Shown: one piece after another, positions 1 to 25,792 of the stretch
How the letters are laid out: every line of letters starts with the position of its first letter
Numbering within the stretch: the stretch's first letter is position 1
Origin: Phallusia mammillata
Lineage: Eukaryota
DNA length: 64,000 nucleotides
Assembly: GCA_965637545.1 (NCBI GenBank)
Contig: OZ281494.1
Span: forward strand, 9,610,001 to 9,674,000
Reading direction: 5' to 3'
Notes under the pieces: model-generated
Told to the model about the DNA's origin: nothing
Database searches by the model: none
The model's input: the letters and a program-made list of their open reading frames with translations, nothing else
Translations under genes and position numbers: made by a program

Positions 1-66
1 CTTGTGCCATTATTAGGAAGTGTTTTGCCGAGTCTGGTTGGAGGCATAAGCAAGTTGTTTAAGTGA
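1..66 (+). CDS. C-terminal end of an upstream Polinton ORF (LVPLLGSVLPSLVGGISKLFK*), amphipathic, adenovirus pX-like tail
   Basis: Frame 1 is open from base 1 to TGA 64-66, which overlaps the next ATG (TGATG). The hydrophobic/amphipathic tail resembles protease-released Polinton core peptides. Confidence 0.55.
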   Translation, partial: LVPLLGSVLPSLVGGISKLFK

Positions 67-677
67 TGTCCGTGCAAAAAATGATGCTCATTGACCCACG
101 CATGTACCGCGATTCGACCACAAAAGTACTATCACGACTTGATGCTGACATGGAACAGATTTTAAATCGGAACGATTTGACGGATCAAGAAAAAATCTCG
201 CAATACCAGGAAGTGTTGGAAAAGTATTTGCTGTTTCACCAGAAACTCGAGAAGCCCCTGGCACTCCCTATCGTACGCAACCCCGCACCTGCAATTCAAA
301 ACAAAGCGCTGAAAACGGACAATCTCGCCGAGCAAACAACTCACTCTATAGCAAAGCCATTCGATGACGCAGCGGAAATGATTGTAACAAGCGCGCCCAA
401 AGCTCTGCAGAAAAAGGCTCGATCACTATTAGATCACTTAAAGCAGAACAACATAAATTGGGACGCGCACAAACAACTGATCTACAATGATCAAGTGATC
501 ACCGGAAGCAATATCGTCTTGGTTCAAGACGCTCTTCGTAAGCGTAAGAATGTAGATCCAATCGGTTGGAAAACATTTGCTGAAATCCTGAAAGAAACCA
601 ACACACCCGAATATATCGTCGGAAACAAAGACCGCTTCAATTTTACCAAAACGAATCCAAGTTGGAAAACCTATTAA
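66..677 (+). CDS. Conserved Polinton/Maverick protein of unknown function
   Basis: About 203-aa ORF inside the element. The pattern W...LIY...ITGSNI...DALR.RK..P.GW..F...L.E.N.P...VGN..R is recognisable from Maverick hypothetical proteins (recall, not searched). Confidence 0.7.
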   Translation: MSVQKMMLIDPRMYRDSTTKVLSRLDADMEQILNRNDLTDQEKISQYQEVLEKYLLFHQKLEKPLALPIVRNPAPAIQNKALKTDNLAEQTTHSIAKPFDDAAEMIVTSAPKALQKKARSLLDHLKQNNINWDAHKQLIYNDQVITGSNIVLVQDALRKRKNVDPIGWKTFAEILKETNTPEYIVGNKDRFNFTKTNPSWKTY

Positions 678-1708
678 TGGAAAAGATATACTACACACCC
701 TCTCAGGCGGGGAGTTTGGGCGGCGTTGATGCCTTGCATCGCTACAGCAAACAAAACCGATCCGATGTGAAACAATGGCTTTCAGGAAGCAGGGCTTATA
801 CCTTGCACAGAACTGCGCGACGTCACTTTCCTCGCAGAAAAGTGGTTGTAGGGGGAATGGGCCAACTCTTTCAAGCCGATCTAATCGATATGAAGCGATT
901 GGCTCGTTTCAACGATAATGTAAAATTTCTGTTGACCAACATTGATGTTTTTTCAAAGGTGGCGTATGTCATTCCTTTGCGCAATAAAACTTCTAGCTCC
1001 GTGGTGAAAGGCTTTTCCAGCATCCTTGAACAAACAAAGCCTTGCAAACTTCAAACAGACCTTGGCAGTGAATTCATATCAAAACCATTTCAAGCTTTGT
1101 TAAAAAAGCACGGCATTGGTTTTTACAGTACTTTTAACGCCGAGACAAAGGCTTCTGTGGTCGAACGTTTTAATCGCACAATTAAAAGCAAGCTATTTCG
1201 ATACATGACCGCGCAAAACACCCATCGCTATATTGATGTACTTGACGACCTTGTTCACTCCTATAATACATCCTATCATCGTGCAATCGGGCGAGCTCCA
1301 TTGGAAGTAAGTGACTGCAATCAGGAAATTGTCTTCCAGAAACTCTATGGCCATCCTGAACCTTTGACCCGACAACGATTTAAACCGGGTGATGCTGTTA
1401 GAATTTCTAAGTTCAAAAAGGTTTTTGGAAAAGGGTACGTTTCGCAGTGGAGCGAAGAATATTTTCATGTAAAACAGCGGCAGCCCGGCGAACCTCCAAC
1501 TTACACGCTATCAGATCTAAACGGGGAACTCTTGCAGGGGACGTTTTACGAAGCGGAACTGCAAAAAATAACTCCGCCGGAAACATTTCAAATTGAAAAA
1601 ATAATAAAGCGAAGAAGAAATAAATTATACGTTAAATGGAAAGATTATTCGCATGATTTCGATAGTTGGATCCCGGCGTCAAGCGTTCAACATGCCAGTG
1701 GTCACTAA
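677..1708 (+). CDS. Retroviral-type (rve, DDE) integrase with C-terminal SH3/KOW-like region and chromodomain
   Basis: Catalytic triad motifs QADLIDM, LQTDLGSEF and VVERFNRT are present. The C-terminal FQIEKIIKRR..LYVKWKDY..DSWIP is a chromodomain. ATG 677 overlaps the upstream TAA. Confidence 0.95.
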   Translation: MEKIYYTPSQAGSLGGVDALHRYSKQNRSDVKQWLSGSRAYTLHRTARRHFPRRKVVVGGMGQLFQADLIDMKRLARFNDNVKFLLTNIDVFSKVAYVIPLRNKTSSSVVKGFSSILEQTKPCKLQTDLGSEFISKPFQALLKKHGIGFYSTFNAETKASVVERFNRTIKSKLFRYMTAQNTHRYIDVLDDLVHSYNTSYHRAIGRAPLEVSDCNQEIVFQKLYGHPEPLTRQRFKPGDAVRISKFKKVFGKGYVSQWSEEYFHVKQRQPGEPPTYTLSDLNGELLQGTFYEAELQKITPPETFQIEKIIKRRRNKLYVKWKDYSHDFDSWIPASSVQHASGH

Positions 1709-1925
1709 GATTTGTGCATCTTCTGGTAAAATTGTCTTCATTTGCCAAATAATTCTAATTTATGGTGTTGTGATTGCCAGCATATTCAATATTTCATCGC
1801 CTCAGCAAACAGAAAAACAGCTTTGGATATCCTTGTTGTCGAGTTGCTTAGGTTACCTGTTACCGAACCCGAAACTGAAGTTCAAAAGGAATGCAGCAAT
1901 TCAACCTAGCCCTGCCGAGCAATAG
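1692..1925 (+). CDS. Small two-transmembrane Polinton protein
   Basis: ATG at 1692 gives 77 aa with two hydrophobic stretches (IVFICQIILIYGVVIASIFNI and LWISLLSSCLGYLLPNP). It overlaps both neighbouring ORFs. Confidence 0.7.
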   Translation: MPVVTKICASSGKIVFICQIILIYGVVIASIFNISSPQQTEKQLWISLLSSCLGYLLPNPKLKFKRNAAIQPSPAEQ

Positions 1926-2619
1926 CAGCTTGGATTTTTATCCGGATAATACAGTGACAAAATACACCACCCGCTTGCCTAGGTCGTTTGCACTACAAGG
2001 CGAGTGGGAACTCGCTCTGGACGAAATTTTTATACCGAAAACATGGAACACTTTTGCGAACGGAGAAGCTTGGCTCAAAATGAAAACTAGGGGTGGAACA
2101 CAGCGCTTGGTTCTTCCCGGGGGTCATTACACAGCTGCATCCTTCGTGCAGGGCTTTCGATCCCTTTTAAGCTTGTCCGAAACAGAATCAAATGTGAGCT
2201 ACTTGAGCATCACCAATCGACTACGTTTAAGCATCGGCGACAATTATCAAATCAAACTCAGCCCCAAGCTTGCCGCCATTTCAGGCTTTGATACCGGGTA
2301 TTTATCAGAAGGCGCTCATTACTCAACTCGACCGCTTGATTTGGCGCAAGGAAGACATCTGATCTCTGTGTATTGCGATATATTGGAGAGCCGAGTGGTC
2401 GGCGATGCGCATGCCCCTCTATTGGCCATCGTCGGAAGTGATTCGGTGCACTTTACAAAAATAATTCATCGCCAATACGCTAAACTTCGATTTCTCAGGG
2501 TACAAAGAAAGGTATTTGATTCTATTACAATTGATATCCGAGACTCAACCGGAAAACCAGTGCCATTTGAAAGTGGGAGCGTTGTGGCGAACTTGACTTT
2601 GCGTGCAATAAAATCATGA
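1891..2619 (+). CDS. Minor capsid protein (penton, single jelly-roll)
   Basis: N-terminal LPSNSS..YPDNT...YTT.LP....L.GEWE.AL.EI and C-terminal VYCDI.E...VGD..APLL...I.IDIRD..G..VPF motifs are typical of Maverick minor capsid proteins. Confidence 0.85.
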   Translation: MQQFNLALPSNSSLDFYPDNTVTKYTTRLPRSFALQGEWELALDEIFIPKTWNTFANGEAWLKMKTRGGTQRLVLPGGHYTAASFVQGFRSLLSLSETESNVSYLSITNRLRLSIGDNYQIKLSPKLAAISGFDTGYLSEGAHYSTRPLDLAQGRHLISVYCDILESRVVGDAHAPLLAIVGSDSVHFTKIIHRQYAKLRFLRVQRKVFDSITIDIRDSTGKPVPFESGSVVANLTLRAIKS

Positions 2620-3029
2620 ACGGTGTTTGTGCAACAGCTTGTCCTTATCAAACCTACTATTTGAATCAGGCGGGTAACGGCCACCCCGTGTTTCACGGAG
2701 CTTCCTATCAACGCGGGCACGGTTTGGGGAATTTGTTTGCGGGTTTGGCTAAAAGCGTGGTGCCTCTGTTAAAGAGTGGCGCTAAAACCGTTGGAAAACA
2801 GCTGATCAGGTCGGGTGTCGAATTCGCGGGCGATTTAATTTCAGGCGTCAATCCGAAAAAAGCAGTCATTCAAAGAAGTAAAGAAGCCGGAAAAAATGTT
2901 TTCGGCTTGGTGGCCGATGCTCTTCAAAAACCACCGAGACAACGCAATAAAAAACGTAAACGCGCGCCTTCCAAAGCCAGTCGCAAAAAGGCAAAGCGGA
3001 CGAAAGGACGTGACATTTTTAGTGGATGA
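2616..3029 (+). CDS. Putative virion core/DNA-binding protein with adenain-type cleavage motifs
   Basis: YY.NQAGNG and YQRGHG|LGNLFAGLAKSVVPLLK motifs, followed by an Arg/Lys-rich C-terminus (RQRNKKRKRAPSKASRKKAKRTK). Confidence 0.75.
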   Translation: MNGVCATACPYQTYYLNQAGNGHPVFHGASYQRGHGLGNLFAGLAKSVVPLLKSGAKTVGKQLIRSGVEFAGDLISGVNPKKAVIQRSKEAGKNVFGLVADALQKPPRQRNKKRKRAPSKASRKKAKRTKGRDIFSG

Positions 3030-4333
3030 GAATGACCTGTCACCCCAAGTCAGCAGAATGTGTTAAAAGCGAGTTGGATTTGTTTATGATTCCTCCGACA
3101 GATACAACTTGTACTGAAGGTTACTTTAGCGAATACTTACCCATCAGCACCATAGGAGAAGCATCTCCGATAGAATTCCACATTTCACCTACAACCGATG
3201 AGTACATAGACTTGTTTCACACCCATTTTCAAATCCGCGCCAAAGTCCTCAACGCGGATGGATCTGCTTTGGCGAATGACGCGGAAGTGTCGGTTGTCAA
3301 CAATTTTGCGCATAGTCTGTTTAGTCAAGTGGATTTATCAGTCAACGATAAATTGGTTACCTCTGCAACAAACACTTACAGCTATAGGGCGTACATTGAG
3401 ACTCTGATGTCATTTGGCCCGGCAGCGAAACAATCTTACCTAACAAGCGGTTTGTATTACAAAGATACAGCGGGAAAATTCGATACTATGTCAGGGGCAA
3501 ACGGCGGATATGCCAAACGCAAAGCCTTTATCGCCGAAAGCAAAACAGTAGATCTTTACGCGAAACCGCATCTTGACTTGTGTAACCAAGACCGTTATGT
3601 TTTGAACGGGGTTGGTTTGAAATTTCGTTTTCTACGCAATTCGGATGAATTTGCTTTGATGTGCGCCGATGACGCAAACTACAAAATTCGCGTGGAAAAT
3701 ATGTCATTGTTCATCCGAAAAGTGAAAATCAGCCCTGCCGTTCAAATAGCACACGCGAAAGCGCTACTCAAATCCAACGCCTTGTATCCGATACGACGAA
3801 CTGATGTGAAAATTCTAAGCATTGGAGCGGGAAACATGGATTTAAATCAACAGAATCTATTTCTGGGACAGGCTCCTAAAAGGGTTGTTGTTGGACTCGT
3901 AGAAAACAGCGCTTACAATGGAACGAGATCCAAAAATCCATTCAATTTTAAAAATTTCAAAGTGAATTTCATGGCCCTCCACATCGGAGCAAAAACTGTT
4001 CCTTCGAAAGTCCTAAAGCCTAATTTTGACGAAGATCTGTTCATGCGTTGTTACACCTCCATGTATACGGCCACTGGCAAGTTCTTTGAAGATCTCGGCA
4101 ACAACATATCTCGCAAGGATTACAAAAACGGTTTCGCGCTTTTTTCTTTCAATCTTTCGCCAGACTTAAATTCAGGAAGTCATTTTGGTTTAAAGCAGAA
4201 GGGGAACATACGCTTGCAATTGCAATTCGCATCGCTGCTGACAGCAACGGTGAACGTCATCGTTTATGCAGAGTTTGATAATATTTTGGAATTGAACAAA
4301 GACAGAACAGTGCTGTTTGACTACTCCGCCTGA
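3026..4333 (+). CDS. Major capsid protein (double jelly-roll, hexon-like)
   Basis: 435 aa. C.KSELDLF..PPT, PIEF.I, NNFAHSLFSQV, YRAYIETL, NPFNF and VIVYAEF motifs are characteristic of Maverick major capsid proteins. Confidence 0.9.
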   Translation: MRMTCHPKSAECVKSELDLFMIPPTDTTCTEGYFSEYLPISTIGEASPIEFHISPTTDEYIDLFHTHFQIRAKVLNADGSALANDAEVSVVNNFAHSLFSQVDLSVNDKLVTSATNTYSYRAYIETLMSFGPAAKQSYLTSGLYYKDTAGKFDTMSGANGGYAKRKAFIAESKTVDLYAKPHLDLCNQDRYVLNGVGLKFRFLRNSDEFALMCADDANYKIRVENMSLFIRKVKISPAVQIAHAKALLKSNALYPIRRTDVKILSIGAGNMDLNQQNLFLGQAPKRVVVGLVENSAYNGTRSKNPFNFKNFKVNFMALHIGAKTVPSKVLKPNFDEDLFMRCYTSMYTATGKFFEDLGNNISRKDYKNGFALFSFNLSPDLNSGSHFGLKQKGNIRLQLQFASLLTATVNVIVYAEFDNILELNKDRTVLFDYSA

Positions 4334-4774
4334 ATGGATTCTCTCACCATAAAACGCATTTTAAACGAAGATAAAAAAGCCAGACGCATCTTCCGCGGAG
4401 TGTATCCGAAAGATCAAATAAACGGCATCGAGGTTCATGCACCGGCCGCGTACGTTTTTAATACCGATGACCACGATGAACCCGGAACTCACTGGTGTGC
4501 TGCTTATTTCGACGACAGCGGCAAGGGTTACTATTTCGACAGCTACGGATTAATGATTTTTCCCGAATTTTACAACTTTATGTCCGACAACGCCACTCAG
4601 TGGACGTTCAATAATATCCAACTCCAAAGCTTTCAATCCTCGGTTTGTGGACATTATGTAATTCTGTTTGTATTCGCTGTATCACGAAACATCTCAATGG
4701 AAGACTTTGTAAACTCTTTTTCGTCCAATTATATAGCAAATGACTTGGTTGTACAAACGTTATTCGATGAATAA
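4334..4774 (+). CDS. Adenain-like (adenovirus-type) cysteine maturation protease
   Basis: Catalytic motifs GTHW, YFDSYG and Q....SSVCG (His-Asp-Gln-Cys) are all intact. Confidence 0.93.
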   Translation: MDSLTIKRILNEDKKARRIFRGVYPKDQINGIEVHAPAAYVFNTDDHDEPGTHWCAAYFDDSGKGYYFDSYGLMIFPEFYNFMSDNATQWTFNNIQLQSFQSSVCGHYVILFVFAVSRNISMEDFVNSFSSNYIANDLVVQTLFDE

Positions 4775-4775
4775 A
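4770..4775 (+). terminator. AATAAA polyadenylation signal overlapping the protease stop codon
   Basis: GAATAAA spans the TAA stop at 4772-4774 at the end of the co-directional cassette. Confidence 0.5.
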
Positions 4776-5024
4776 TTCTCCCCGAAGCGCTTGGCAATTG
4801 ACTGCGTCAAAACCGTCTTTGCAATATTACGTCAGAAAACAGGTCTGCAGGCGCGAATTAATTGGCTTCGCCAAGCCCTTTGATGGGCCTGGTAAACACG
4901 ATTGCCTAGCGTACAATTGTTCCCATCCAATTGCCCTCAATAGCAATGCAATTCAGGAAACAATTTCCGCAAGCGAGGCCAGCTCACCACAAACGTAAAG
5001 ATAATGCTATCTTGCGGTTTTTAC

Positions 5025-5527
5025 CGTTTAGGGTTATATCAATCTGGGCAACAAACTACCTAGGGTTATACCTAATACATACCAAATAGTTAGGAAAATC
5101 ATCCATAGGATTACATTCATTACCCTCTAAAGGGTTATAGTTAGAATTATTAGCATCTCAAATTAACGTCTAAACTTAGGGTTATTACCCTTAGGATTGA
5201 AGCTCCTAAACTTTGGGTCAGAGTCTAAACTTAGAATGATTACCGTCTAAACCTAGGGTTAGGGTTAGGGTTAGCATTTAAACCTAGGGTCTTAACTAGG
5301 GTTAGGGTTAGGGTTAGCTCCTAAACTTTGGGTCAGAGTCTAAACTTAGAATGATTACCGTCTAAACCTAGGGTTAGCATTTAAACCTAGGGTCTTAACT
5401 AGGGTTATAGTTAGGGTTAGCGTCTAAACTAAGGGTCTAAACTTAGGGTTAACGTCTAACCGTCTATAGGGTTAGACCGGAAGTAATTGAGCATACTTGG
5501 TGGGTCAAAGCCACAATATATACTACT
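5025..5527. repeat. Polinton right terminal (probable TIR) region with telomere-like TTAGGG/CTAGGG repeats and an internal ~114-bp tandem duplication
   Basis: CTAGGG(TTAGGG)2TTAG at 5253-5274 and 5296-5317, with scattered TTAGGG. AGCTCCTAAACTTTGGGTCAGAGTCTAAACTTAGAATG occurs at about 5201 and 5315. Confidence 0.75.
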
Positions 5528-6250
5528 CAAATTATGCTTCCTTGGTTAAAGATTAGCATCACTTTACGCCATGATGTGTTACATAACTTATGGCCCTAAA
5601 ATTCGTGCAACTGTTAACTTTAAAGTAGAAAAATACAGTCAATAAAGTTTCCCGAAAATATCTTAAAACATGGCAGTGCGGGCATTTCCTGGAGCAGCAA
5701 CCTGTCGTGCTGAAGATGGCTTCTTCCGTTGTTTGCACACTGGCGTTTGCATTCCACGGTACAAAGTTCGAAGTTACGGAAGCGACTGCTGGCTGGGTGC
5801 GGTGGCAGACGAGAGCGATGAGGATAGAGGTCAGCTCAAGAAACTATTTTTTCAAATGCTTTCAGTTTAAAGTATCCATTCATCATAACAACGATAACAC
5901 ATAGGACAGTTGCTTACTTTAAAAAAGTTAAATTTCAGAACCCTTGAATTGCACCGATGATGAATTTAAATGCCGCTCTCTCAAAAAGTGTGTACCGCGT
6001 TATCTTCTCAACACCAAAGAAAGCTGCAAATTAAACGAGGGCTTGATTCTTCCATGCAGAAATCAGACAGGTTGGTTGGTTGTTACTAAACTGCAACTTC
6101 AAATCCATTTATATTAGTAGTTTTTTATGGAAAGTTCCTCCTTTAACAATTCAAAACATTTTCATTCCTCCCTAATAAACTACACAGTAAATGTTTAACC
6201 TTACAAAGATCATTTAAAATTAGGTGCTTTTTAACTTTACGGTTTATATC

Positions 6251-6430
6251 CAGTGGTGGGTTTCATTTTTTTTGTCTGGCGGTTCTATCACAAAAGTCTT
6301 ATTTTTCAGCCGGTTCTGTTACAAATAGTCCATTGACAGTAACCAGTAATGCTAACCGGTTCGCTGATCTCATAAAATTTCGTGAGACGGTTCTATACAA
6401 CCGGTGCGGACCGGCTGAATCCCACCACTG
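6251..6430. mobile_element. Small MITE in GPCR intron 3 (also in copy 4 at about 60428-60606)
   Basis: TIR CAGTGGTGGG.TTCA / TGAATCCCACCACTG. It is absent at the orthologous site in copy 3 (about 53186-53195). The TSD is degenerate. Confidence 0.75.
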
Positions 6431-8094
6431 TTTACGTCCCTAGAACTATAAAGTGTTTGTTTACAAATAACGTGTACAAGTTAAAGTCAATTTCTCCCAT
6501 CAGGTTTCAAAATTTCCGGTAAGGTACCACTGCGCTATATGTAGACAAGTCACTGTTCCATTTATTGTATCATAGAATTCACGTGCAAACGCAGCAAGTT
6601 GTGTATTCCACGTTGGATGGTGAAGAACGGCAAGCGCAATTGTGACACAATGGTAGTGAAGGACGGAAGTGACGAAACCATCGATGTAACCTCATGTGAC
6701 GCTTCAGAATTTCCCTGTTCCAACAACACTTCCTCACCACTACAGTGCATTCCGAGGGCATGTGTTGGAGACGGTGTGAAGGATTGTGCAAATGGAAGAG
6801 ATGAAATTACGAACTTGACAAGTTGTTACAATGACACAGAGTTTCGGTGTAACACAAACGGACGTTGTTTGGAGCGACATCGAGTGATAAATAATTTTCC
6901 TGATTGTCCTGATGGTTCCGATGAAAAGTAAGCTCTTAAATGCATTCCAGATAAAGAGTTTCGATGCCACGACAACGGTCGTTGCATTCCGCGCTCGTGG
7001 CGAGGAAACACCTTCGTGAACTGTAACGATGGAAGCGACGAAATTCCATGGAGCGCAAACGAAACGTGCTTTGATGGCGAATTTCGTTGTCACAACGGCA
7101 AGCGATGCATTTCCATCTACTTGTTGTGTGACGGCATGGATCACTGCGGTGACTGTAGCGACGAGATTGAGAGCTGCACTGAACCCAGGATGCTTCGATG
7201 TCCTAACGAGCCGGGTACGTGTGTGCTTCCCACCTATTCCTGCGATGAGTTTGCAGACTGCCCAGAAAATACCGAATACGTCAAACATACCACTGGCTTC
7301 AAGTGTAACAAAGTTGTGGCCGGAATTGACAGTACTGTGTACTGCGTTCTGCCCCAATGGACATTAACTGATGAATATCCGATTTGCCAAGATTCGTCAG
7401 ATTTGTGTTTTGTCAACGGAACTTTCAACTGTCATCGGTGTTTGTATTCGGACATGATTATTTCACCCAAACAGTTATGTGACGGTATTTTTGACTGTCC
7501 TGACCTAACAGACGAATGCCTTTGCGCCCGAAATGTTCCGGGTTCGGCTTCGTCAGTATATCTGTGTGACAATGTGTGCTATGGTGATTCTGGCAACCCT
7601 GCTTGTTCGTTGTGCAGCATGGGGCAAGTAAAATGTGGATTGGAAGACGTATGTATTTCCAAATCACAAGTGTGCGACGGTAAAGTGGATTGTCCTATCA
7701 CAAAGCTTGATGAGCTTCACTGTGGCAGATCAACCAATCAGGACAACGTAATTAACTTAAAAAATTTTCATTGCGACCCCATTCCACAAGAAATAAGCAA
7801 AGTTATTCAAACAGTGTTGACCAAAGATGTCATAAACACCTTAGCTCCTTCGCAAGCTACAAAGTACGAGGCTGTTTGGCAATAGAAGAGAAGTATACGT
7901 ATTTCATGATTATGGTTTCTGTTGTTGCAGGTGTAACAACGTTGTGGAGTGTTCAAGATTCGAAGACGAGTGCAGCGAGAGAGCAAATTGTAGCATCAGA
8001 CATCCACTGTGCGACCAAATTCCTATGGACGTGGTAATGTTTTGACTGAGGGGTATTTCCATCCTTCATACTTCCTGTAATGTATAGTTTAAAC

Positions 8095-8679
8095 CAGTGG
8101 TCTTCAACCTGTGGGTCGCGACCCCAAGTGGGGTCGCCTAAACTGTTTCTGGGGTCGCCATAAATTCAAGTTATTGGCGTTTAAATTTATTACCTAAAAA
8201 AATGATACGTTTTCGTTCTAGTTCGCAACCTTTGCTCATGTTCTGCAGTATAACTTGGTAGCTCCAGTCACAATCTAATCATTGTGATGCAGTAATCCAC
8301 ATGAAACACAGTCATCTAACCCATTGTTACGCCATAGAGCCTCATTAATGACATATTGTGTCCAAAATAATACAGCGAGTACAGGGAAATATACATGATT
8401 TTACTGATTTCTGCAAACTGGTGAGCTTTAACGCGAATTAGACTGGTCAAAGTAAATAAAACGTTTGGGTTCTAACATTTAAGCGTAATAACGCACGCTG
8501 AATGTTAATAGTTAAAGTATACTGGAAAATTGAGCGTTCATGTTTACATAAAAATAGTTTCAGTTTTGACATTACTACAAACATTTTTCTCCCTATTGGA
8601 AAAAACGGGGTCGCATGTAAATGCTGATTTAATTTTCTTTTAAATTGGGGTCGCCTTTAAAAAAGGTTGAAGACCACTG
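8095..8679. mobile_element. hAT-type MITE
   Basis: TIR CAGTGGTCTTCAACCT / AGGTTGAAGACCACTG with an 8-bp TSD GTTTAAAC (8087-8094, 8680-8687). Empty site in copy 4 at about 62260. Confidence 0.9.
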
Positions 8680-9146
8680 GTTTAAACTATTGAATGTGGA
8701 AGCCTTGATTTGCATAAAGTTCGTGCTTATACTTCTCTTTTGACACTTATTCATCATCTATTGCCACTTAGTGCCTAAGTTAAGACAGTGTTACCATATG
8801 TTGACTACAACTGTGTTACGAAAATCTTGCGACCAATTTCTTCTTAGATGTTTATCTCTGGACACTTACTCGGTGGAGATCTACTGGCAGTGCAAGCACG
8901 AAAATGTCAACTACATTTTGGCTTCAGTTCCATTCTAGGTTCATCAATTTGCAACGGATATGAGGAATGTCAGGAAGGTTACGACGAAGCGATTTGCCTC
9001 GGTCGCTTTCGATGCGCAGCAGGACAAGTCGAAACTTTAGTTTACGGTTAATAGATTGTCATTCAGACCTAAAAAGGCTGTATTTGTTTGTTGATTATTT
9101 AGTTATGTGTTTAATACTTTTTGCATTACTACAAAAGCTGGCATAC

Positions 9147-9497
9147 TAGGGTTGTAAGTCGGGTCGGACTTTTCGGGCCTAGGTTTTTCAAATCGGGCCT
9201 GACTTCACATTCTGTGTACGCAACATTTTACAAATAAAATCCCCTAGCTAAATAGACTTTTAATGGACTAATGCCTAACAGCCCTAAAACGTCTTGTTTA
9301 AGCCAATGTTTGTTACTTTGCATTGTGCATGTCAACTTTACGATTTTCTGTACAGACGTACTTTTTGTAAGCTTTCATGTATTTGCCGGTCAAACAGTTT
9401 TGAGCCCTCTCAAAAACGATTTAGGTTCGGGCCGGGTTTGTATGCTTTGGTTCTGGCCGGATTTGTGCTAGAACTTCCGGCCCCGCCTAAAACTCTG
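9147..9497. mobile_element. Old degenerate MITE in GPCR intron 6, shared by all four copies
   Basis: TAGGGTTGTAAGTCGGG...AAACTCTG ends with TCGGGC subterminal repeats, related to the 30652-31059 element. A degenerate TSD (TGGTATAC/TAGTATAC) is visible in copy 4. Confidence 0.6.
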
Positions 9498-12400
9498 TAG
9501 TATACAATTTACATAAACCAATCTTTCATACTAAAGTGGATAACTTCGTTCAGGTGTTCGTGATCGTGTAAGCATCCCGGTCCAGAAAACATGCGACCTG
9601 GTCTCCGATTGCATCAACTCCACAGACGAACTTAACTGTTCCGAATCCACACACTTCTACTGCCTCAACAAGTCCCCTCCATATGTACCAATAACCAAAG
9701 TTCTCGACGGCGTTTCAGACTGCAGCGATTCCTCAGACGAATGTCCTCCGAACTACTTCAAAAACGACGCACTTGCCTCCAACGAGCAAATGATCAAAAT
9801 TCGAGCTCTCGAAATCCTGGTCTGGTTTATGGCAATATTGGCGTTGTTTGGCAACCTCGCAGTTATGATAAACACTGCGCTTTACTTTAAACAAACCAAG
9901 ATCGATCAATTACAAAACAAAGTAGGCTTGATCAACAACGCTTTGATTTTCAACTTAGCAATAGCTGATTTTCTCATGGGTATCGTTCTCCTGGTTGTTG
10001 GAATCAAAGCGGTTGAGTTTTCAGGGAGTTACTGTCTTTTTGACAAGTTGTGGAGATCTAGTAACCTGTGCAACGCAATCGGTGCCATGACAGTGATTTC
10101 AAGTGAAACATCAGTGCTTACATTGGTTTGCATCACATCATATCGTCTCTACATCATTTGTAAACCTTTCGAGTCTCGTTGTATCAGGGGCAGAATTGCA
10201 ATAATGTGGATCTGTATCATCTGGTTTGTCTCCTTTCTTCTTGCTTTGCTTCCACTTTCTACCGTCTTGTCTGGAAATATGTTAAACAGGGCTCAAATCA
10301 CGCCTAGTCCTTATTTCTATTCTGATCAAGTGAAACTTACCGACTTCAGGCAATTTGCTCTGCGAATCGCTGCTTTAGGCAACAAAACTCAGCAAAATAT
10401 TGAGTCATACAATTGGGACGAACTTAACGCTTATCTAACCTCGGAACAAAGCTCCGTGGCGCCATCCACTGTCGGTTATTTTGGTTACTACAGCAGCAGT
10501 AGCGTTTGCATTCCGCGTCTGTTTCGCATCAGCAAAAACGAATCGGGCGTCAACCCAATGTCGTCCATTGTAATCTCGTTCAACTTTGTGGCACTTCTTT
10601 ACATTGCTTCGTCTTATGTTGCCATTTACATCAAATCGAGTGGCAATGAGGTGACTAAATCCAACAAGGTGAAGAACAAACAGAATGTGAGCATGCAACG
10701 GAAAATCACATTGCTCATAGCAACTGACATGTGCTGCTGGTTACCGATTTGCATCATGACATTTCTTAGTATGTCAGGAGTTGTTCTGCCTCCGGATTCC
10801 TATGCAGTTTCAGCAGTGGTTCTCCTGCCCATCAACAGCTCACTCAACCCGATGATTTGCACCAACTTTCCACAGATGGTCTATTCCAAAATCCGATTTC
10901 TTATCAACAAAGCCAGAAGTTGCTTCAATTTCTCGCCATTGCGCAACGCCGTGCATCGACCATCAGCCGAGCTTGAAATGCCCAAGAAAAATGTCACTAA
11001 AGTGTAACCTTCCAATTTTTTAACGTAAATTGGCCATAACACCAAGAAAGGCACGCTACTCTTTGTGCCTAAATTTAGATAATTGTTGTCTATTAATTAT
11101 ATACGTGGCCTACCTTTTGTCTGACGTTTCTGTAAATAAAACCCTTGCGCTGTCAGTAGCCAGTGATGCCCTAAAATGTTTACGTTTATGTGGATAAGTG
11201 AAACTTTTACCAAGTAAAGCTGTATACGAATCCCCGCCACTTGACGCTTGTGCAACGGTATAGCTAAAGCGTGTTCGGCATCTTTTCACCATTTGCGCCC
11301 CTTTGCTGTTTGCGCTCCTTGCCGTTTAACGTTACGCAGCTTTATCCGCTTGGGTAAATGCTATAGCGCGACTGTGCTGCTACGATTTGTTCTACGAGCA
11401 AACGAAATTCAAATCAAGCACGTCCTTGAAGGAGTAGAGTGCTAAAAACATGATTTGCAGACACAAACTGTTGCTGTTGTGTGTTTTTGTACAGACGGCA
11501 TGATGTTGCTTACAAGTATGACATGTCTTGTTTGAAACTGAACTTGTTGACTTATTCCAATACCGTATTCAAGAATTATGCTTTAATATTTTTACTGAAA
11601 AAAATTGTTGTTTGAATATTACTGCCATTTGTCACTTCTTTCAATTACATTGTCGTTTTGCCTGGACGCAGCGACATGTTCATTATTTCCGCAACTCTCT
11701 CGATGTTAGAGTGTTCAGTTGTTTTCGCAACAGAAAAATTTAGTTAAACCCTCTTTTCTATTTTTTATTTCAAAAAACCGACCATTGTAACACTGCAGTT
11801 CTTTTCCTGGAATATGTATGTACTTACAATTTCGTTAGACGTCGCTTATGTGTTGTGACTAAAATTGCCTAATTTACAGCAGTGTTCAGTTTTCTGGTCA
11901 CTGTAGGCAATATGTAATGTACAACGGTATTGGTTCTCAGTTAAAGCGAACAGAAAAGCGTCACAATCATCTTGTAACAAAAAAAATGGCCAATAACCTG
12001 ACACAAAGAAACATGTGACGTTATAAGAGTCAACATATCTTAACTCATACACCAACATTGTCCTGACATTAATCTAAAATAATCGCACACAATCAAATTA
12101 CGTACCAACTTGTTAGAAATCCAGGTTTAAACTACAGACACTTTGACGGATGTTTAGCACTTTAAAATGAACAGGCATTCATGCTTTTATAGCTGCACAT
12201 AATACAAGGTATAATGTTAGAACATACATATTTCTAAACTAAAATAGTTCAATCACAAACTGCGACTCATAAAAAAGCTGCTCAGAGCACAGAAAGAAAC
12301 TGCAAAACGTGGCCTGCGCAACATAGCACTAGCAATGGTATCAGACGCATTGTTACGTTTTAGTTTTCTCCACCAATCATGGCAGGCGCTTTAATACGTC

Positions 12401-18724: not shown

Positions 18725-20286
18725 CGACGGACCAATTAATCTCAGTTTAATAACAAACAACACATTCTGATTTAGTTTTAATCGGTCATATAACTATGAA
18801 CTGCATATAATAGTAAAAGACAAAGAAAGCGTTTTTGCATTCATTTATTGTTACAACGAGACGTTGCTTGCGTTTGCTTTCTTTTCCTGTTTCTGGTTTA
18901 GGCTATAGTGATTTGCCATTACTTACTGTGACGTAACAAAGCGCCTGCTATGATTGGTGGAGAAATCTTAAACGTAACAATGCGTCTGATATAGTAGTGC
19001 AATGTTGTGCGGACCACGTTTTACACTTTCTTTCTGTGCTGTGCCTGTGAGCAGCCATTTTAGTAGTCGCAGTTTGTGATTGAACTAATTTAGTTTAGAA
19101 ATATGTATGTTCTAACATTACAGTGTATTATGTGCAGCTATAAAAACATGAATACTAAAGTTGATTTTAAAGTACAGGTTAAAAAATCCTGTAGTTTTAA
19201 TCTGTACTTCTAACAAGTTGGTACGTAATTTGATTGTGTGCATTTATTTTAGATTAATGTCATGACAATGTTGGTGTACGAGTCACATGTTTCTTTGTGT
19301 CAGGTTATCGGCCATTTTGTTGTTTTCTATATTACAAGATGATTGTGACACTTTTCTGTTCGCTTTAACAGAGAACCAACACTGTTGTACATTACATATT
19401 GCCTACATTTACCAGAAAACTAAATACTACTGTGAATCAAATAATTTTAGTCACAACATAGGAACGTGTAACAAATTGCAAAATCGGTACATGTATCTTC
19501 CATGAAAAGAATTCCAGAATTACAATGGTCGACCTTGAAACAGTAAAAAAAACGAGGGTTTAAGTAAATTGTTCTTTTGGGAAAACGGGCAAACACATTA
19601 ATATCAAGAAAGTTACAGAAATTATGAACTTATCGCTGCGTCCAGCCAAAACGACACTGAAAATGGAAAAAGTCCAAAGTGGCAGAAACATTCATACAAC
19701 AGCATTTTCAGTAAAAATAATAAAGCATATTTCTTGAATACAGTCTTGAAATAAGTCAACAAGTTCAATTTCAAAGAAGACATGTCATCCTTGTAAGCAA
19801 CATCATGCCGTCTGTGCAAAAACATGCAACAGCAAGAGTTTGTGTCCGCAAATAATGTTTTTAGCACTCTACTCTTTCAAGGACGTGCTTGATTTGAGTT
19901 TCATTTGCTTGTTAAACAAATCGTGACAGCACAGTCGCGCTATAGCATTTACCCAAGCGGACAAAGCTGCGTAATGTTAAACGGTAAAGCAAAGGGGCAC
20001 AGATGGTAAAAAGATGCCGAACACGCTTTAGCTATACCGTTGCACAAGTGTCAAGTGGCGGGGCTCGTATACAGCTTTACTTAGTGAAAGTTTCACTTAT
20101 CCACATAAAGTTATACATTTTAGGGCATCACTGACATCTGACAGCGCAAGGGTTTTATTTACAGCAACGTCAGACAAAAGGTAGGCCACGTATATAATTA
20201 ATAGACAACAATTATCCAAATTTAAGCACAAAGAGTAGCGTGCCTTTCTTTGTGTTATGACCAACTTAAGTTTTAAAAATTGAAAG

Positions 20287-23200
20287 TTACACCTTCGTGA
20301 TATTTTTCTTGGGCATTTCAAGCTCGATTGATGATCGATGCACGGCGTTGCCCAATGGCGAGAAGTTGAAGTAACTTCTGGCTTTGTTGATAAGAAATCG
20401 GATTTTGGAATAGACCATCTGTGGAAAGTTGGTGTAAATCATCGGGTTGAGTGAGCTGTTGATGGGCAGGAGAACCACTGCTGAAACTGCATAGGAATCC
20501 GGAGGCAGAACAACTCCTGACATACTAAGAAATGTCATGATGCAAATCGGTAACCAGCAGCACATGTCGGTTGCAATGAGCAATGTGATTTTCCGTTGCA
20601 TGCTCACATTCTGTTTGTTTTTCACCTTGTTGGATTTTGTCACCGCGTTGCCACTGGACTTGATGTAAATGGCAACATAAGACGAGGCGATGTAAAGAAG
20701 TGCCACAAAGTTGAACGAGATTACTATGGACGACATCGGGTTGACGCCGGATTCGTTTTTGCTAATGCGAAACAAACGTGGAATGCAAACGCTGCTGCTG
20801 CTGTAGTAACCAAAATAACCGACAGTAGATGGCGCCACGAAGCTTTGTTCCAAAGTTAGATAAGCGTTAAGGTCGTCCCAATTGTATGACTCAATTTTCT
20901 GCTGAGTTTTGTTGCCTAAAGCAGCGATTCGCAAAGCGAATTGCCTGAAGTCGGTAAGTTTCACTTGATCAGAATAAAAGTAAGGACTGGGTGTGATTTG
21001 AGCGCTGGTCAACATATTTCCAGACAAGGCGGTAGAAAGTGGAAGCAAAGCAAGAAGAAAGGAGACAAACCAGATGATACAGATCCACATTATTGCAATT
21101 CTGCCCCTGATACAACGAGTTTCGAAAGGTTTATAAATGATGTAGAGACGATATGATGTGATGCAAACCAATGTAAGCACTGATGTTTCACTTGAAATCA
21201 CTGTCATGGCACCGATTGCGTTGCACAGGTTACTAGATCTCCACAACTTGTCAAAAAGACAGTAACTCCCTGAAAACTCGACCGCTTTGATTCCAACAAC
21301 CAGGAGAACGATACCCATGAGAAGATCAGCTATTGCTAAGTTGAAAATCATAACGTTGTTGATCAATCCTACTTTGTTTTGCAATTGATCGATCTTGGTT
21401 TGCTTAAAGTAAAGGACAGTGTTTATCATAACTGCGAGGTTGCCAAACAACGCCAATATTGCCATAAACCAGACCAGGATTTCAAGAGCTCGAATTTTGA
21501 TCATTTGCTCGTTGGAAGCAAGTGCGTCGTTTTTGAAGTAGTTCGGAGGACATTCGTCTGAGGAATCGCTGCAGTCTGAAACGCCATCGAGAACTTTGGT
21601 TATTGGTACAAATGGAGGTGACTTGTTAAGGCAGTAGAAGTGTGTGGATTCGGAACAGTTAAGTTCGTCTGTGGAGTTGATGCAATCGGAGACCAGGTCG
21701 CATGTTTTCTGGACTGGAATGCTTACACGATCACGAACACCTGAACGAAGTTATCCACTTTAGTATGAAAGATTGGTTGATGCAAATTGTATACTACAGA
21801 GTTTTGAGCGGGGCCGGAAGTCATACAAGCCCGGCCCGAACCTAAATCGTTTTTGAGAAGCCTGTTAACTGTTTGACCGCCCAATACATGAAAGCTTACA
21901 AAAAGTACGTTTGTACAGAAAATCATAAAGTAGACATACACAATGGAAAATAACAGACGTAGTCGTTTTAGGGCTGTTAGGCATTAGTCTAGCAAATGTC
22001 TATTTAGCAACGTTATTTTATTTTAAAAATATTGCGGAAACAAAGTGTAGGCCCGAACGTGCACGGAAAAGTTCGACCCGATATAAGTTACAAGTCTGAT
22101 ATATCAGCTTCTGTAGTAATGCAAAACGTATTAAAGATATAACTAAATAATCAACAAATAAATACAGCATTTTTTAGGTCTGAATGGTAAAAAAATCTAT
22201 TTACTGTAAACCAAAGTTTCGACTTGGCCTGCTGGGCATCGAAAGCGACCGGGGCAAATCGCTTCGTCGTAACCTTCCTGACAATCATCATATCCATTGC
22301 AAATTGATGAACCTAGAATAAAACTATAGGCAAAATGTAGTTGACATTTTCGTACATGCACTTTCATTGGATCTCCACCGACTAAGGATCCAGGGATAAC
22401 CACCTGAGAAGAAATAGGTTGTTACGCAGAGTTTCCAAAATTAGGTTGCAGGCAACATGTGGTAACCCTTTTTTAACTTAGGCACCATATGACAATAGAG
22501 GAAATCAAAGTTTTTCAACTTTCGATAGAACAAACTACACTGCAGGAAGTGTGAAGGATGGAAATACCCCTAAGTCAAAACATTACCGTGCCCATAGGAA
22601 TTTGGTCGCACACTGGATGTCTGATGCTACAGTTTGCTCTCTCGCTGCACTCGTCTTCGAATCTTGAACACTCCACAACATTATTGCACCTGACAACAAC
22701 AGAAACCATAATCATGAAATCGTATACTTCTCTTCTATTGCCAAAACAGCCTCGTACTTTGTAGCTTCCAAAGGAGCTAAGCTGTTTATGACATCTTTGA
22801 TTAAGATCGATTGAAGAACTTTCCTTTTATCTTGTGGAATGGGATCGCAATGAAAATTTTTCAAGTTAATCACGTTGTCCTGATTGGTTGATTTACCGCA
22901 GTGAAGCTCATCCAGCTTTGTGATTGAACAATCCACTTTACCATCGCACACTTGTGATTTGGAAATACATACGTCTTCCAATCCACATTTCACTTGCCCT
23001 ATGCTGCACAACGAGCAAGCAAGGTTGCCAGGGTCTCCGTAGCACACATCGTCACACAGATATACTGACGAAGCCGAACCCGGAACATTTCGGGCGCAAA
23101 GGCATTCGTCTGTTAGGTCAGGGCAGTCAAAAATACCGTCACATAACTGTTTGGGTGAAATAATCATGTCCGAATACAAACACCGATGACATCTGAAAGT

Positions 23201-25792
23201 TCCATTGACAAAACACAAGTCTGATGAATCTTGGCAAATTGGATATTCATCGGTTAATGTATATTGGGGCAGAACGCAGTACACAGTTTGTTCAATTCCG
23301 GCCACAACTTTGTTACACTTGAAACCAGTGGTATATTGGACATCCTCGGCATTTTCTGGGCAGTCTGCATACTCATCGCAGGAATAGGTGGGAAGCATAC
23401 ACGTATCGGGCTCGTTAGGACATCGAAGCATCCTGGGTTCAGTACAGCTCTCAATCTCATCGCTACAGTCACTACAGTGATCCATGCCGTCACACAACAA
23501 GTAAATGGGAATACATCGCTTGCCGTTGTGACAACGAAATTCACCATCAAAGCACGTTTCGTTGGCGCTCCATGGAATTTCGTCGCTTCTATCGTTACAG
23601 TTCACGAAGGTGTTGCCTCGCCACGAGCGCGGAATGCAACGACCGTTGTCATGGCATCGAAACTCTTTATCTGGAATGCATTTAAGAGCTTGCTTTTCAT
23701 CGGAACCATCAGGACAATCAGGAAAATTATTCCTCACTCGATGTCGTTCCAAACAACGTCCGTTTGTGTTACACCGAAACTCTGTGTCATTGTAACAACT
23801 TGTCAAGTTCGTAAGTTCATCTTTTCCATTTCCACAATCCTTCACACCGTCTCCAACCCATGCCCTCGGAATGCACTGTGACGATGAGGAAGTGTTGTTC
23901 GAACAGGGAAATTCCAAAGCGTCGCATGAGGTGAGGGTGATGGTTTCGTCACTTCCGTCTTTCACTACCATTGTGTCACAATTGCGCTTGCCGTTCCTCA
24001 CCATCCAACGTGGAATACACAACTTGCTGCGTTTGCACGTGAATTCTATGATAAGTTGACATAAATGTGAGTATCTTGCCTACTTGTAGGACAGTGGTAC
24101 CCAACCGGAAATTTTAAAACATAAAAGGGAGAAATCTACTTTAACTAAGTTAGTACACGTTATTTGTAAACATACACTTTAGCTCTGGGGATATAAACCA
24201 GAGAGTCGAACCGGAACTGAACCCGAACCCGCGAACTGGTTTGGGCGGTTAATTTCATTAAACCCGACCCGAACCGCGAACTGCGATTTTCTAAAAACCC
24301 GAACCGGAGTTGAACTCCATATTTTGTATGGCGTTGAACCCAAACCCGAACCGAACCAGTAAAAAACGCAGTATGTTTTATATTTTGTGATTTTTTTCAA
24401 AACAGCACACTGAAGAATTCACGAGATGACACTTACAGGGCGTGTCAAAAACAACAGTGCTCAGGAAAAAAAATTGAGTGTGATGAGGCCAGGTAGATGA
24501 TGGGTAGAATTAAATTAAAACAAATAAAAATTTGAACCGGTTTGAAAACCGCAAACCGGTTCGGACCGGATAATTTGCCCAAACCGAAACAAAACCCGAA
24601 AATATACATTTTTAAAAACCCGAACCGAATCCGAACCCTAAAAAACAAAACCAAGTGAACCCGAACCGAACCTGAACACATATGACAAGCGGTTCGACTC
24701 CCTGATATAAACCGTAAAGTTAGTAAAACACATAATTTTAAATGATCTTTGTAAGGTTCAGCATCAGGGAGGAATGAAAATGTTTTGAATTGTTAAGTGA
24801 GGAATTTTTCCATAAAGAACCACTAATATAAATGGATTTAAATTCGCAGTTTAGTAACAACCAACCAACCTGTCTGATTTCTGCAAGGAAGTATCAAGTC
24901 CTCGTTTAATTTGCAGCTTTCTTTGGTGTTGAGAAGATAACGCGGTACACACTTTTGGATAGAGCGGCATCGAAATTCATCATCGGTACAATTCAAGGGT
25001 TCTGAAATTTAACATTTTGAAGTAAGCAACTGTCCTATACAGTGCCGGATTAAGGATCGGCTGCCCTGTAGGCACGTTTCATAAGTGGCCTGAAAATCAG
25101 GGTTGCCAAATAAAAATTAGAATTATCAGTGTTGCCAAATCATTGTCACAAAGAAAAGTGGCCTGGATTTTTGACTGGCCTGTATAGGCACGTGTCTACT
25201 TTGCCTAATGGTTAATCCGGCACTGGTCCTATATGTTATCGTTTTTATGATAAATGGACATTTTAAAGAGTTGGAAAATAATTTGTTGAACTAACCTCTA
25301 TCCTCGTCGCTTTCGTCTGACAACGAATCCAGCCGGCAGTCGCTTCCGAAACTTCGCACTTTATAACGTGGAATGCAAACGCCAGTGTGCAAACAACGGA
25401 AGAAGCCATCTTCAGCACGACAGGTTGCTGTTCCGGGGGATCCCCACACTGCCATGTTTTAAGATTTTTTCAAGTAATTTTGTTGCCTGTATTCTCTACT
25501 TTAAAGTAAACAGTTGCACGAATTTTGGGGTCATAAGTTATGTAACACATCATGACGTAAAGTGGTACTAATCTTTAACCAAGCAAGCATAATTTGACAC
25601 AATTAAACGTTAACTGTCAAAAAATCTATGTGAGACGAAATTATACGTAATAATAAAACCAGTTACATTTAGCAGTTTATGAGTGAAATTTTGCCAACCT
25701 TGTTTCAAAGGACGATATACGCTTTTTCCTTACCACTTACCTTGAGGTATTGAGATCCAAGAAAGAACAACAATAAGTACAAGTGGTTCCAT
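20287..25792 (-). CDS. LDLa-repeat rhodopsin-class GPCR copy 2 (GRL101/RXFP-related, no LRR block seen), about 1126 aa; exons 25792-25741, 25448-25296, 25001-24870, 24045-22758, 22689-22587, 22403-22205, 21740-20287
   Basis: Signal peptide MEPLVLIVVLSWISIPQ, then roughly 13-15 LDLa-like C...C.DGSDE modules. The 7TM region has GNLAV, NLAIADLLMG, TDMCCWLP and NSSLNPMIY. Exons total 3381 nt with no stop found. Confidence 0.9.
24199..24704. mobile_element. hAT-type MITE with CCGAA/AACCG subterminal repeats, in intron 3 of copy 2
   Basis: TIR CAGAGAGTCGAACCG / CGGTTCGACTCCCTG with an 8-bp TSD ATATAAAC. Confidence 0.88.
25040..25225. mobile_element. hAT-type MITE in intron 2 of copy 2
   Basis: TIR CAGTGCCGGATTAA / TTAATCCGGCACTG with an 8-bp TSD GTCCTATA. 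It is absent from copies 1, 3 and 4. Confidence 0.9.

Follow-up and report, generated by a model that had tools for sequence, protein, structure and literature searches.

Among the closest known relatives of the locus reported here are the Mavericks of vertebrates, which range from 12.7 to 24.6 kb, have terminal inverted repeats (TIRs) of 46–1447 bp and include 134 intact elements, 'intact' meaning that the core ORFs are free of stops, frameshifts and introns (PMC8097293). In papers on Mavericks of vertebrates and of nematodes, the core genes are described as lacking introns. The window that we analysed, 64,000 nt of the Phallusia mammillata genome, holds in its positions 1–5527 the right 40% of a 14,081-bp element, i.e. 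the end that carries the capsid and integrase genes (Table 1). We conclude, with a probability of about 0.82, that this copy on contig C1 is a young, polymerase-defective integrated member of a recently active Maverick/Polinton (eupolintovirus) family.

Table 1 Features of the element and its surroundings (plain positions are those of the window; C1 and C7 are contigs)
Feature	Position	Strand	Remarks
Maverick/Polinton element	C1:9601447-9615527 (assembly G000)		14,081 bp; ends AGTAGT..ACTACT
Left TIR	C1:9601447-9602322		876 bp; outside window
pPolB	C1:9602377-9607406	-	3 introns, 2 frameshifts
193-aa ORF	upstream of window	-	
Small spliced gene	upstream of ATPase, outside window		one 59-nt intron
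Packaging ATPase, 203 aa	C1:9609067-9609678	rightward	open; Walker A/B
116-aa basic ORF, 3' end	1..66 (stop 64-66; start C1:9609716)	+	PM-like by position after ATPase; QKGG motif
203-aa ORF	66..677	+	PZ-like by position
Integrase, 343 aa, retroviral-type with C-terminal chromodomain	677..1708	+	Pfam rve E 4e-9, Chromo E 1.5e-5
77-aa ORF with hydrophobic segment	1692..1925	+	hydropathy up to 2.3
Putative minor capsid protein (penton), 242 aa	1891..2619	+	position as in Mavericks
137-aa basic ORF	2616..3029	+	PW-like by position; Q-x-G-x-G motifs
Double-jelly-roll major capsid protein, 435 aa	3026..4333	+	predicted fold; homolog P0004 has DJR-like_dom
Adenain-type cysteine protease, 146 aa	4334..4774	+	Peptidase_C5 E 1.2e-4, over cut-off
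Right TIR	4703..5527		825 bp; ends ACTACT
Degenerate telomere-like array	5028..5451	+	13 YTAGGGTTR sites (8 TTAGGG)
Target-site duplication CAAATT	5528..5533	+	6 bp; present both sides of element
LDLa-repeat GPCR host gene of tandem array	6545..11007	+	outside element
Sister copy	C7:2215419-2229546		own target-site duplication; TIRs 926 bp, 100% identical

The ends of the element follow the Maverick/Polinton signature, (AGT)2//(ACT)2 or (AG)n, and its genes include pPolB (frameshifted), a DDE integrase, a double-jelly-roll capsid, a packaging ATPase and an adenain-type protease. The sequence CAAATT occurs as a single copy in four empty paralogous sites, which run through without the element. 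Termini, 6-bp duplication and gene set uphold the Polinton/adintovirus identity proposed in a first-pass annotation of the window. The youth of the insertion that it proposed is likewise supported, as the left TIR, now located, differs from the right by only 4 mismatches and 2 gaps, and the interior of the C7 sister copy is ~99% identical to that of the C1 copy. Both copies belong to family 1; the three two-ended elements in the genome each have a 6-bp duplication. By the vertebrate definition (PMC8097293) the C1 copy falls outside the intact class, with two frameshifts and three introns in pPolB.

Within positions 1–4775, the seven whole ORFs have zero internal stops, as the annotation had read them, and most are coupled stop to start; a caveat is that the 203-aa ORF at 66..677 is one codon shorter than its counterpart in the C7 sister. 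The catalytic residues that the annotation had named can be read from the sequence as D68, D128 and E163 in the integrase, with D-35-E spacing, and as H53, D69, Q98 and C105 in the protease, whose H and acidic residue align with adenain 1avp, though at E 0.15 only, and whose final 23 codons fall within the right TIR. The major capsid protein is predicted to fold as a double jelly roll: the AlphaFold model built with a 109-row alignment reaches pLDDT 90 (29 from the single sequence), its top structure matches are double-jelly-roll capsids (Sputnik, E 1.4e-15), and it superposes on PBCV-1 with Z 28.9 and rmsd 2.8 over 352 aligned residues; a profile sequence search of solved structures with the capsid returned 0 matches. 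The putative penton has no Pfam match and scores 0.98 in the Atlas to unnamed clusters, the top two of which are commonest in Preplasmiviricota; by position and Atlas neighbours it is a candidate single-jelly-roll protein. Among the small proteins, the 77-aa ORF is conserved in all three Polinton families of the genome (36–64% identity), and the 203-aa ORF is 32–48% identical to its cognates in the two other families, with no Pfam match over the cut-off and no Atlas match. The Q-x-G-x-G motifs of the 137-aa ORF are presumably protease cleavage sites. The PM label of the 116-aa ORF reflects synteny with the Mavericks of PMC8097293.

Upstream of the window, where the annotation had proposed to look for pPolB, an ATPase and the left TIR, the TIR is present and the ATPase is open, its Pfam P-loop matches lying below the cut-off (Pox_A32 E 0.024), but pPolB is disrupted by two frameshifts, both at points where the frame of the C7 sister runs through. 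This is the outcome that the annotation itself had named as counting against its possibly virion-competent provirus, and the reading of the C1 copy as an autonomous provirus is not supported; with a frameshifted pPolB it is probably unable to supply its own polymerase. The pPolB pieces are 33–48% identical to PF03175-bearing homologs and hold exonuclease and polymerase motifs; the N-terminus has C2H2 zinc fingers, with no OTU domain match in the N-terminal piece at E 0.1, and a homolog profile search of solved structures gave 0 matches. A VDG..FHGCFxHGC..WEC stretch inside the polymerase, found here and in homologs and interrupted by a 705-nt intron, is what we take to be a candidate VSR. It could be argued that the C1 copy is complete and autonomous after all, as first supposed, and that the pPolB breaks are assembly errors: both lie at homopolymer runs (5 and 7 bases), where assemblies err, the remaining core genes are all open, just four substitutions separate the TIRs, and one break of the two lies outside the stretch compared with sequencing-run contigs. 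Yet a contig of DNA run X1 matching the C1 copy spans 10 kb including the upstream break with 0 gaps and 1 mismatch (this run may itself be the source of the assembly), X1 holds 1.00 of 791 words sampled from a stretch spanning both breaks, and a single break suffices to part the N-terminal portion from the polymerase motifs. Assembly error seems to us very improbable, and we retain the reading of a polymerase-defective copy.

An open capsid block beside a broken pPolB is not in itself surprising. If two frameshifts fall at random on the coding DNA, both miss the block with a probability of ~0.23 (rough lengths); the block is presumably still open because the insertion is recent, and an open capsid module is ordinary because such modules are common in Polintons, as in the 134 intact vertebrate elements (PMC8097293). 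Between the C1 and C7 copies we count 46 synonymous and 41 non-synonymous differences (pN/pS 0.24, p 1e-10), with 11 and 11 in the ATPase-to-protease block (ratio 0.28, p 0.004). Could selection by the host, through domestication or antiviral use, be keeping the capsid/integrase block intact while pPolB decays? The block diverges from the sister by 0.39% and the pPolB side by 1.38% (Fisher p 3e-8), and parts of it are covered by contigs of 2 of 3 sequencing runs labelled RNA by guess, both of one study. Synonymous sites, however, show the same contrast (0.9% vs 2.9%), which points to recombination between relatives and not to selection; the ~0.23 chance given above also speaks against the idea, as do the other samples holding most of the stretch, which share 0.71–0.78 of its words, near the 0.69 expected of a sister-type allele, so that the C1 insertion may not be fixed. 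Host selection, too, seems to us very improbable, and we keep to a young copy that has lost its polymerase. The annotation had also set the intact ORFs against a decaying host neighbour, and the LDLa-repeat GPCR gene does carry a premature TAA (6929-6931) at a codon that is sense in all three paralogs checked; however, because its 487-aa 7TM exon is open and further copies of the array also bear stops, such decay is not confined to the gene beside the element.

The pPolB of family-1 members is transcribed and is spliced at three GT–AG introns of 69, 71 and 705 nt. Two of their splice joints appear in contigs of 3/3 and the other in contigs of 2/3 of the RNA-guess runs (two studies, other samples than the assembly, and none recorded as RNA), and all are absent from the one DNA run, and the pPolB pieces abut on the intronless homolog P0121 at the intron points (704/705, 827/831 and 907/907). 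At all 30 substitution rows compared the RNA contigs agree with the sister allele, and their pPolB frame is open at the single break compared; being contigs, they are silent on source locus and transcript level, and blanks in their cover (the ATPase region, the interior of the long intron and, in one run, the capsid side) were not counted as evidence. Splicing implies that the family is transcribed in the nucleus and gives either host or element a step at which replication could be controlled. It also bears on surveys: one that demands long ORFs would class such a pPolB as a decayed relic, so that intact elements may be undercounted.

Are these introns a trait of the mobile lineage or, as in the dinoflagellate eupolintoviruses, did intron-making transposons insert them recently into copies already resident? 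Dinoflagellates do have full-length eupolintoviral proviruses populated by introners (PMC12166617), and in the present genome family 3 has an intronless pPolB frame of 1347 codons and the 71-nt intron is absent from the one family-2 copy checked. Against recent insertion, all four introns (including the 59-nt intron of the small gene) are common to C1 and C7, two independent insertions, and the 69-nt pPolB and 59-nt introns recur in family 2 at the same position and phase, despite differing intron sequences; the proteins of family 2 are 43–70% identical to those of family 1. At the codon of the third pPolB intron, family 2 has an insertion with a GT start and no evident in-frame AG. Recent introner insertion is, in our judgement, quite improbable, and we favour introns carried by the mobile lineage. 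Beyond this genome, we gathered 82 public capsid-bearing loci (2 viral contigs and 80 kept of 501 metagenome matches from an alignment search), a single-protein scan of viral contigs having found no relatives. A pPolB match, mostly of a distant type (21–30% to the homolog used), occurs in 14 of them; a single alignment spans the first intron position in 13 and the second in 7, none split, and none of the 14 is informative at the third.

The TIRs of family 1 hold a further feature. All 13 YTAGGGTTR sites of the right-TIR array are on the strand running toward the end of the element (0 on the other), and the six family-1 ends carry 13, 13, 16, 14, 14 and 10; shuffling gives a mean of <=0.1 and a maximum of 2, figures to be read with the provisos that the motif was picked after the array was seen and that tandem slippage makes sites non-independent. 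The three family-2 TIRs have 0 such sites each, the remaining 58 kb of the window contains 2, and the signal is local to the TIR: TTAGGG occurs 33 times in the whole window against 20.7 by chance, a count that 2 of 100 shuffles reach. YTAGGGTTR is the binding site of human TRF1 (PMC3241663), and both host contig ends that were read carry a TTAGGG telomere, with the TIR sites in the same orientation. A search for a host TRF-like gene with the TRF family gave no match, but its controls were also silent, i.e. the search was insensitive; nine stretches read, covering 11 of 16 Myb matches, held four Myb-like segments, none telobox-like.

What might the arrays do? By analogy, they may bind a host factor for telomere repeats and so shield or activate the ends of the free form, a tentative reading that we hold at somewhat under even odds; the alternative, to which we lean slightly, is that each array is a neutral product of slippage, or a site for an unrelated host factor, without a role in end protection. 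The neutral account fits the lack of arrays in family 2, which has nonetheless made many insertions, the modest perfect TTAGGG runs (at most 2 units in the C1 copy and 6 in the sister), the unequal site numbers at the two ends of the C1 element, and the finding of a similar cluster in 1 of 82 public capsid-bearing loci, on the opposite strand, most of these loci being without element ends. It is less at ease with the strand bias, which all six ends share, a solo end of 77% identity among them, and with the 66 AGGGTT cores, whose flanks match Y-T in 58 and 58 cases and A in 65, while outer positions vary. A scan of viral contigs for the terminal motif (14 specified bases) gave at least 120 matches, taken as chance. 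Arrays as a means of telomeric integration were rejected because insertions are internal with 6-bp duplications: the seven terminal matches in the genome all lie 1–10 Mb from contig starts, and the three two-ended elements have the duplications, a pattern other than that of the telomere-integrating herpesviruses (TMR). If the arrays do bind telomere proteins, this would explain how a free linear Polinton genome escapes treatment as a broken chromosome. The broader proposition, that an animal eupolintovirus lineage has come to depend on the spliceosome, its polymerase being produced only once long-conserved introns are removed, and on host telomere-repeat-binding proteins, drawn to its linear ends by TRF-site arrays beside the protein-primed origin, strikes us as unlikely.

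The C1 element is an integrase-type insertion with its 6-bp duplication. Its rightward genes encode the ATPase, small basic proteins, the integrase, a putative penton, the capsid and the protease, and pPolB runs leftward. In the life cycle that we propose from known Polinton biology, the family would replicate as free linear DNA, protein-primed from its TIRs; the ATPase may package this DNA into a double-jelly-roll capsid, which the protease would mature, and integration would follow again. With less confidence, the YTAGGGTTR array just inside each end might recruit a host telomere-repeat factor, much as TRF sites do at EBV oriP. Being transcribed, the family is a natural setting for a search for the free DNA and particles of an animal Polinton.

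How, then, does the element compare with known systems? Like vertebrate Mavericks (PMC8097293), it has pPolB, ATPase, integrase, major and putative minor capsid genes, protease and three small conserved ORFs, the gene order INT-mCP-PW-MCP-PRO, (AGT)2//(ACT)2 ends and a 6-bp duplication; its size and TIR length are in the reported ranges, and a defective pPolB is common there. Here, however, ATPase-PM-PZ lie on the capsid strand with pPolB pointing away, and pPolB has three spliced introns, whereas the intact vertebrate elements have none. With adintoviruses/Eupolintoviridae (PMC8502044) it shares hexon, a putative penton, adenain, FtsK-type ATPase, rve integrase and PolB, and with the Alpha class the PF03175 marker of its PolB homologs; the N-terminal OTU of Alpha adintovirus was not detected at E 0.1, and the N-terminus has C2H2 zinc fingers. 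The candidate VSR stretch, cut by the 705-nt intron, may be compared with the VSR insertion of marine pPolB2 Polintons (10.1101/2023.08.22.554363). As in the introner-bearing eupolintoviruses of dinoflagellates (PMC12166617), spliceosomal-type introns reside in Polinton-like proviruses; unlike there, the introns are few and lie in elements of an animal genome, two of them keep their positions in both family 1 and family 2, and RNA contigs show splicing. Neither a spliced animal pPolB nor telomere-like Polinton TIRs turned up in the literature searched, which was mostly open-access. In carrying host-type telomere sequence near its termini, the family recalls the TRF sites of EBV oriP and the TTAGGG repeats of HHV-6 and Marek's disease virus (PMC3533235); the latter two integrate at telomeres, whereas family-1 elements lie 2–10 Mb within chromosomes and have integrase-type duplications, and the array, as degenerate 9-mers, is closer to the monomeric oriP sites. 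Two features extend the first-pass annotation: the spliced pPolB introns and the TRF-site-like arrays in the TIRs.

At the level of sequence, what the element adds to an open capsid module is a set of RNA-supported, position-conserved introns and, at its ends, oriented arrays of TRF-site motifs. It is a Maverick/Polinton by the tests for that group, and two things, its frameshifts and its introns, set it apart from intact elements as defined in the literature. One stretch of its protein-primed polymerase (pPolB) may be a VSR-like insert of the kind present in marine pPolB2 (10.1101/2023.08.22.554363); a homolog-profile search of solved structures gave no confirmation of this reading. The PolB homologs carry PF03175, the Alpha marker (PMC8502044).

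The plus strand of window positions 1-4775 holds seven whole ORFs and the end of an eighth, mostly stop-start coupled and all open, as the first-pass annotation had claimed, and the catalytic residues that it described can be taken directly from the translations: D68-D128-E163 in the integrase (Pfam rve and Chromo matches) and H53-D69-Q98-C105 in the protease (Pfam Peptidase_C5 match). A 435-aa protein has 1690 homologs out of 6378 candidates, with 46-52% identity among the matches listed; six of the named ones are "F54H12.2-like" or uncharacterized animal proteins. Its predicted fold (pLDDT 90, with a 109-row alignment as input) matches the double-jelly-roll capsids of Sputnik, PBCV-1, faustovirus and mavirus. 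The minor capsid (penton) assignment is putative, based on position and unnamed Atlas neighbours, and the names PM, PZ and PW were assigned from gene position only. The neighbouring LDLa-GPCR gene, described earlier as decaying, does have a premature stop (6929-6931) that is absent from 3/3 paralogs checked, but other array members are likewise damaged.

Locations of the element, its relatives and neighbouring features (C, contigs; L, labels of DNA stretches)
Feature	Location	Description
Element	C1:9601447-9615527; right end, window 5527	14,081 bp; termini AGTAGT..ACTACT; target duplication CAAATT (6 bp)
Sister copy	C7:2215419-2229546	14,128 bp; TIRs 926 bp, identical to each other
Short element	C8:8763481-8767375 (L015)	family-1 TIRs ~1037 bp; own 6-bp duplication
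Solo family-1 end	C1:1055116-1056059 (L035)	77% over outer 288 bp; 10 YTAGGGTTR sites kept
Rearranged family-2 element	C2:8737200-8748071 (L027, L028)	long inverted duplication, 2.8-kb arms; 445-bp identical TIRs; 6-bp duplication
Family 3	C3:10.285-10.302 Mb; C7:17.45-17.46 Mb; C79	two copies 99.7% identical across 14 kb; inverted repeat just ~50 bp; long tandem repeats by one end
~7-kb unit, three copies	C1:23.81-23.95 Mb (L031, L032)	1.1-kb inverted repeats; inner family-1 TIR part in common; no AGTAGT end, no telomere-like array
LDLa-repeat GPCR genes	window 5528-11800, 19300-25600, 52400-58000, 59600-64000; C1:9.59-9.76 Mb	copies in tandem and inverted orientation, 88-97% alike; premature stops in several; birth-and-death family
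Tandem repeat, 126 bp	window 44604-45059	3.6 copies

The window corresponds to C1:9610001-9674000. Four paralogous host-array units continue through the insertion site with the 6 bp present once. The terminal inverted repeats (TIRs) of the element, 876 and 825 bp, differ by four substitutions and two gaps (53 nt in total), nearly all inside the repeat array. TIRs are near-identical within one copy, yet 83-87% identical between the two full copies, whose inner border differs too, a pattern expected if the ends copy each other during free replication. As lower bounds, the assembly has seven exact copies of a 26-nt terminal motif, which belong to this element, the C7 sister, the short C8 element and the solo end on C1, and the capsid has at least 30 matches, including two more families whose identity is about 62-70% and 46-47%. 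The short C8 element does not match the full element in its interior, where a 200-N assembly gap is flanked by a 692-bp duplicate. One of the ~7-kb units has a 425-codon frame that presumably represents a reverse transcriptase-like protein.

The first-pass annotation had proposed a young, possibly virion-competent provirus; its observation was confirmed, and its interpretation was supported in part. Upstream, the left TIR is present and the packaging ATPase frame is open, but pPolB is disrupted: this minus-strand gene is split into six pieces by three introns and by two frameshifts (near C1:9605680 and C1:9603000), both at homopolymer runs and both at points where the sister's frame is continuous. 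One contig of DNA run X1, possibly the assembly's own source, matches 10 kb including the first break with no gap and one mismatch; the second break lies outside this 10 kb. Because of the two frameshifts, the first of them supported by X1, this copy most likely makes no polymerase. A comparison of the C1 and C7 copies gives a pN/pS of 0.24 across all genes compared and 0.28 for the ATPase-to-protease block, which indicates that purifying selection acted on the mobile lineage before insertion. Their divergence is 1.38% on the pPolB side and 0.39% on the capsid side (p 3e-8), with the same contrast at synonymous sites, a pattern suggestive of recombination among relatives. Our data show integration with a 6-bp duplication, the gene content, the splicing of transcripts of the family and the fact that this copy is defective. 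From known Polinton biology, a free linear form would replicate by protein priming, the ATPase would package DNA into a capsid built from the major and minor jelly-roll proteins, the protease would mature that capsid, and re-integration would follow.

The three pPolB introns are GT..AG gaps of 69, 71 and 705 nt, all present in the sister (the long one as 676 nt), and on public homologs that lack introns the coding pieces on either side meet directly. Among contigs of three runs labelled RNA by guess, from two studies, the 705- and 71-nt gaps are skipped in 3/3 runs and the 69-nt gap in 2/3; DNA run contigs skip none. A 59-nt GT-AG gap in a small plus-strand gene is skipped in one run, at low depth. 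Transcripts, which the first-pass annotation had suggested seeking, are seen for the family; they derive from sister-type copies in other samples and not from this allele, because the RNA allele is the sister's at 30/30 substitution rows compared (from 40 of the 47 rows, leaving out nine around the frameshift and one from the DNA run). In family 2, the 69-nt intron has a counterpart of identical position and phase in two copies (both ends seen), as does the 59-nt intron in one copy; the 71-nt intron is missing from the one copy checked, and the third site carries an insertion without a clear acceptor. Family 3 pPolB is intronless. In the family-2 copy at C5:26.7146 Mb (L025/L026), a deletion appears to fuse the first pPolB intron with the third-site insertion. 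At C1:9607418 (L036:3718), contigs from two presumed RNA runs of one study end at an AG immediately upstream of the pPolB start codon, which hints weakly at another intron in the leader. Between the divergent gene blocks, at C1:9608195 (L036:4495), a presumed RNA contig departs from the element for 117 letters with no match anywhere in the compared stretch. Maverick transcription as such is already known (PMC5803895), no introns were seen in intact vertebrate Mavericks (PMC8097293), nematode core genes are called intronless with introns in cargo genes only (10.1101/2022.07.12.499685), dinoflagellate eupolintoviruses carry introners (PMC12166617) and protist PLVs carry group I introns (PMC12220804). 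We found no report of a spliced pPolB in an animal Polinton in literature covered in part, where supplements or Repbase entries may hold cases.

The same partial coverage yielded no report of telomere-like Polinton TIRs. The host telomere repeat is TTAGGG (2/2 contig ends read), and YTAGGGTTR occurs 10-16 times at each family-1 end, at distances of 74-552 bp from the terminus and always on the strand that runs outward to the end; shuffles gave at most 2, the element interior 1 and 3/3 family-2 TIRs 0. Two short CCCTAA runs in a public metagenome contig (L076:13180-13280) lie ~1.9 kb downstream of a related capsid encoded there, on the strand opposite to the family-1 arrays. YTAGGGTTR is the site selected, with free spacing, by human TRF1 dimers (PMC3241663), monomeric TRF sites at EBV oriP serve replication and episome maintenance (PMC3533235), and the terminal protein of adenovirus is not enough by itself to block the damage response to viral ends (PMC5580475). 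If the arrays have a function, it would more likely be to protect the ends of the free form or to activate its origin, but the perfect runs are short, slippage leaves the sites non-independent, the motif was picked after the array was seen, family 2 manages without an array, and an insensitive search did not identify a host TRF gene. HHV-6 and MDV use TTAGGG arrays for entry into telomeres (PMC3533235), whereas family-1 insertions are internal and carry integrase-type duplications, and herpesvirus-type telomere entry is therefore ruled out.
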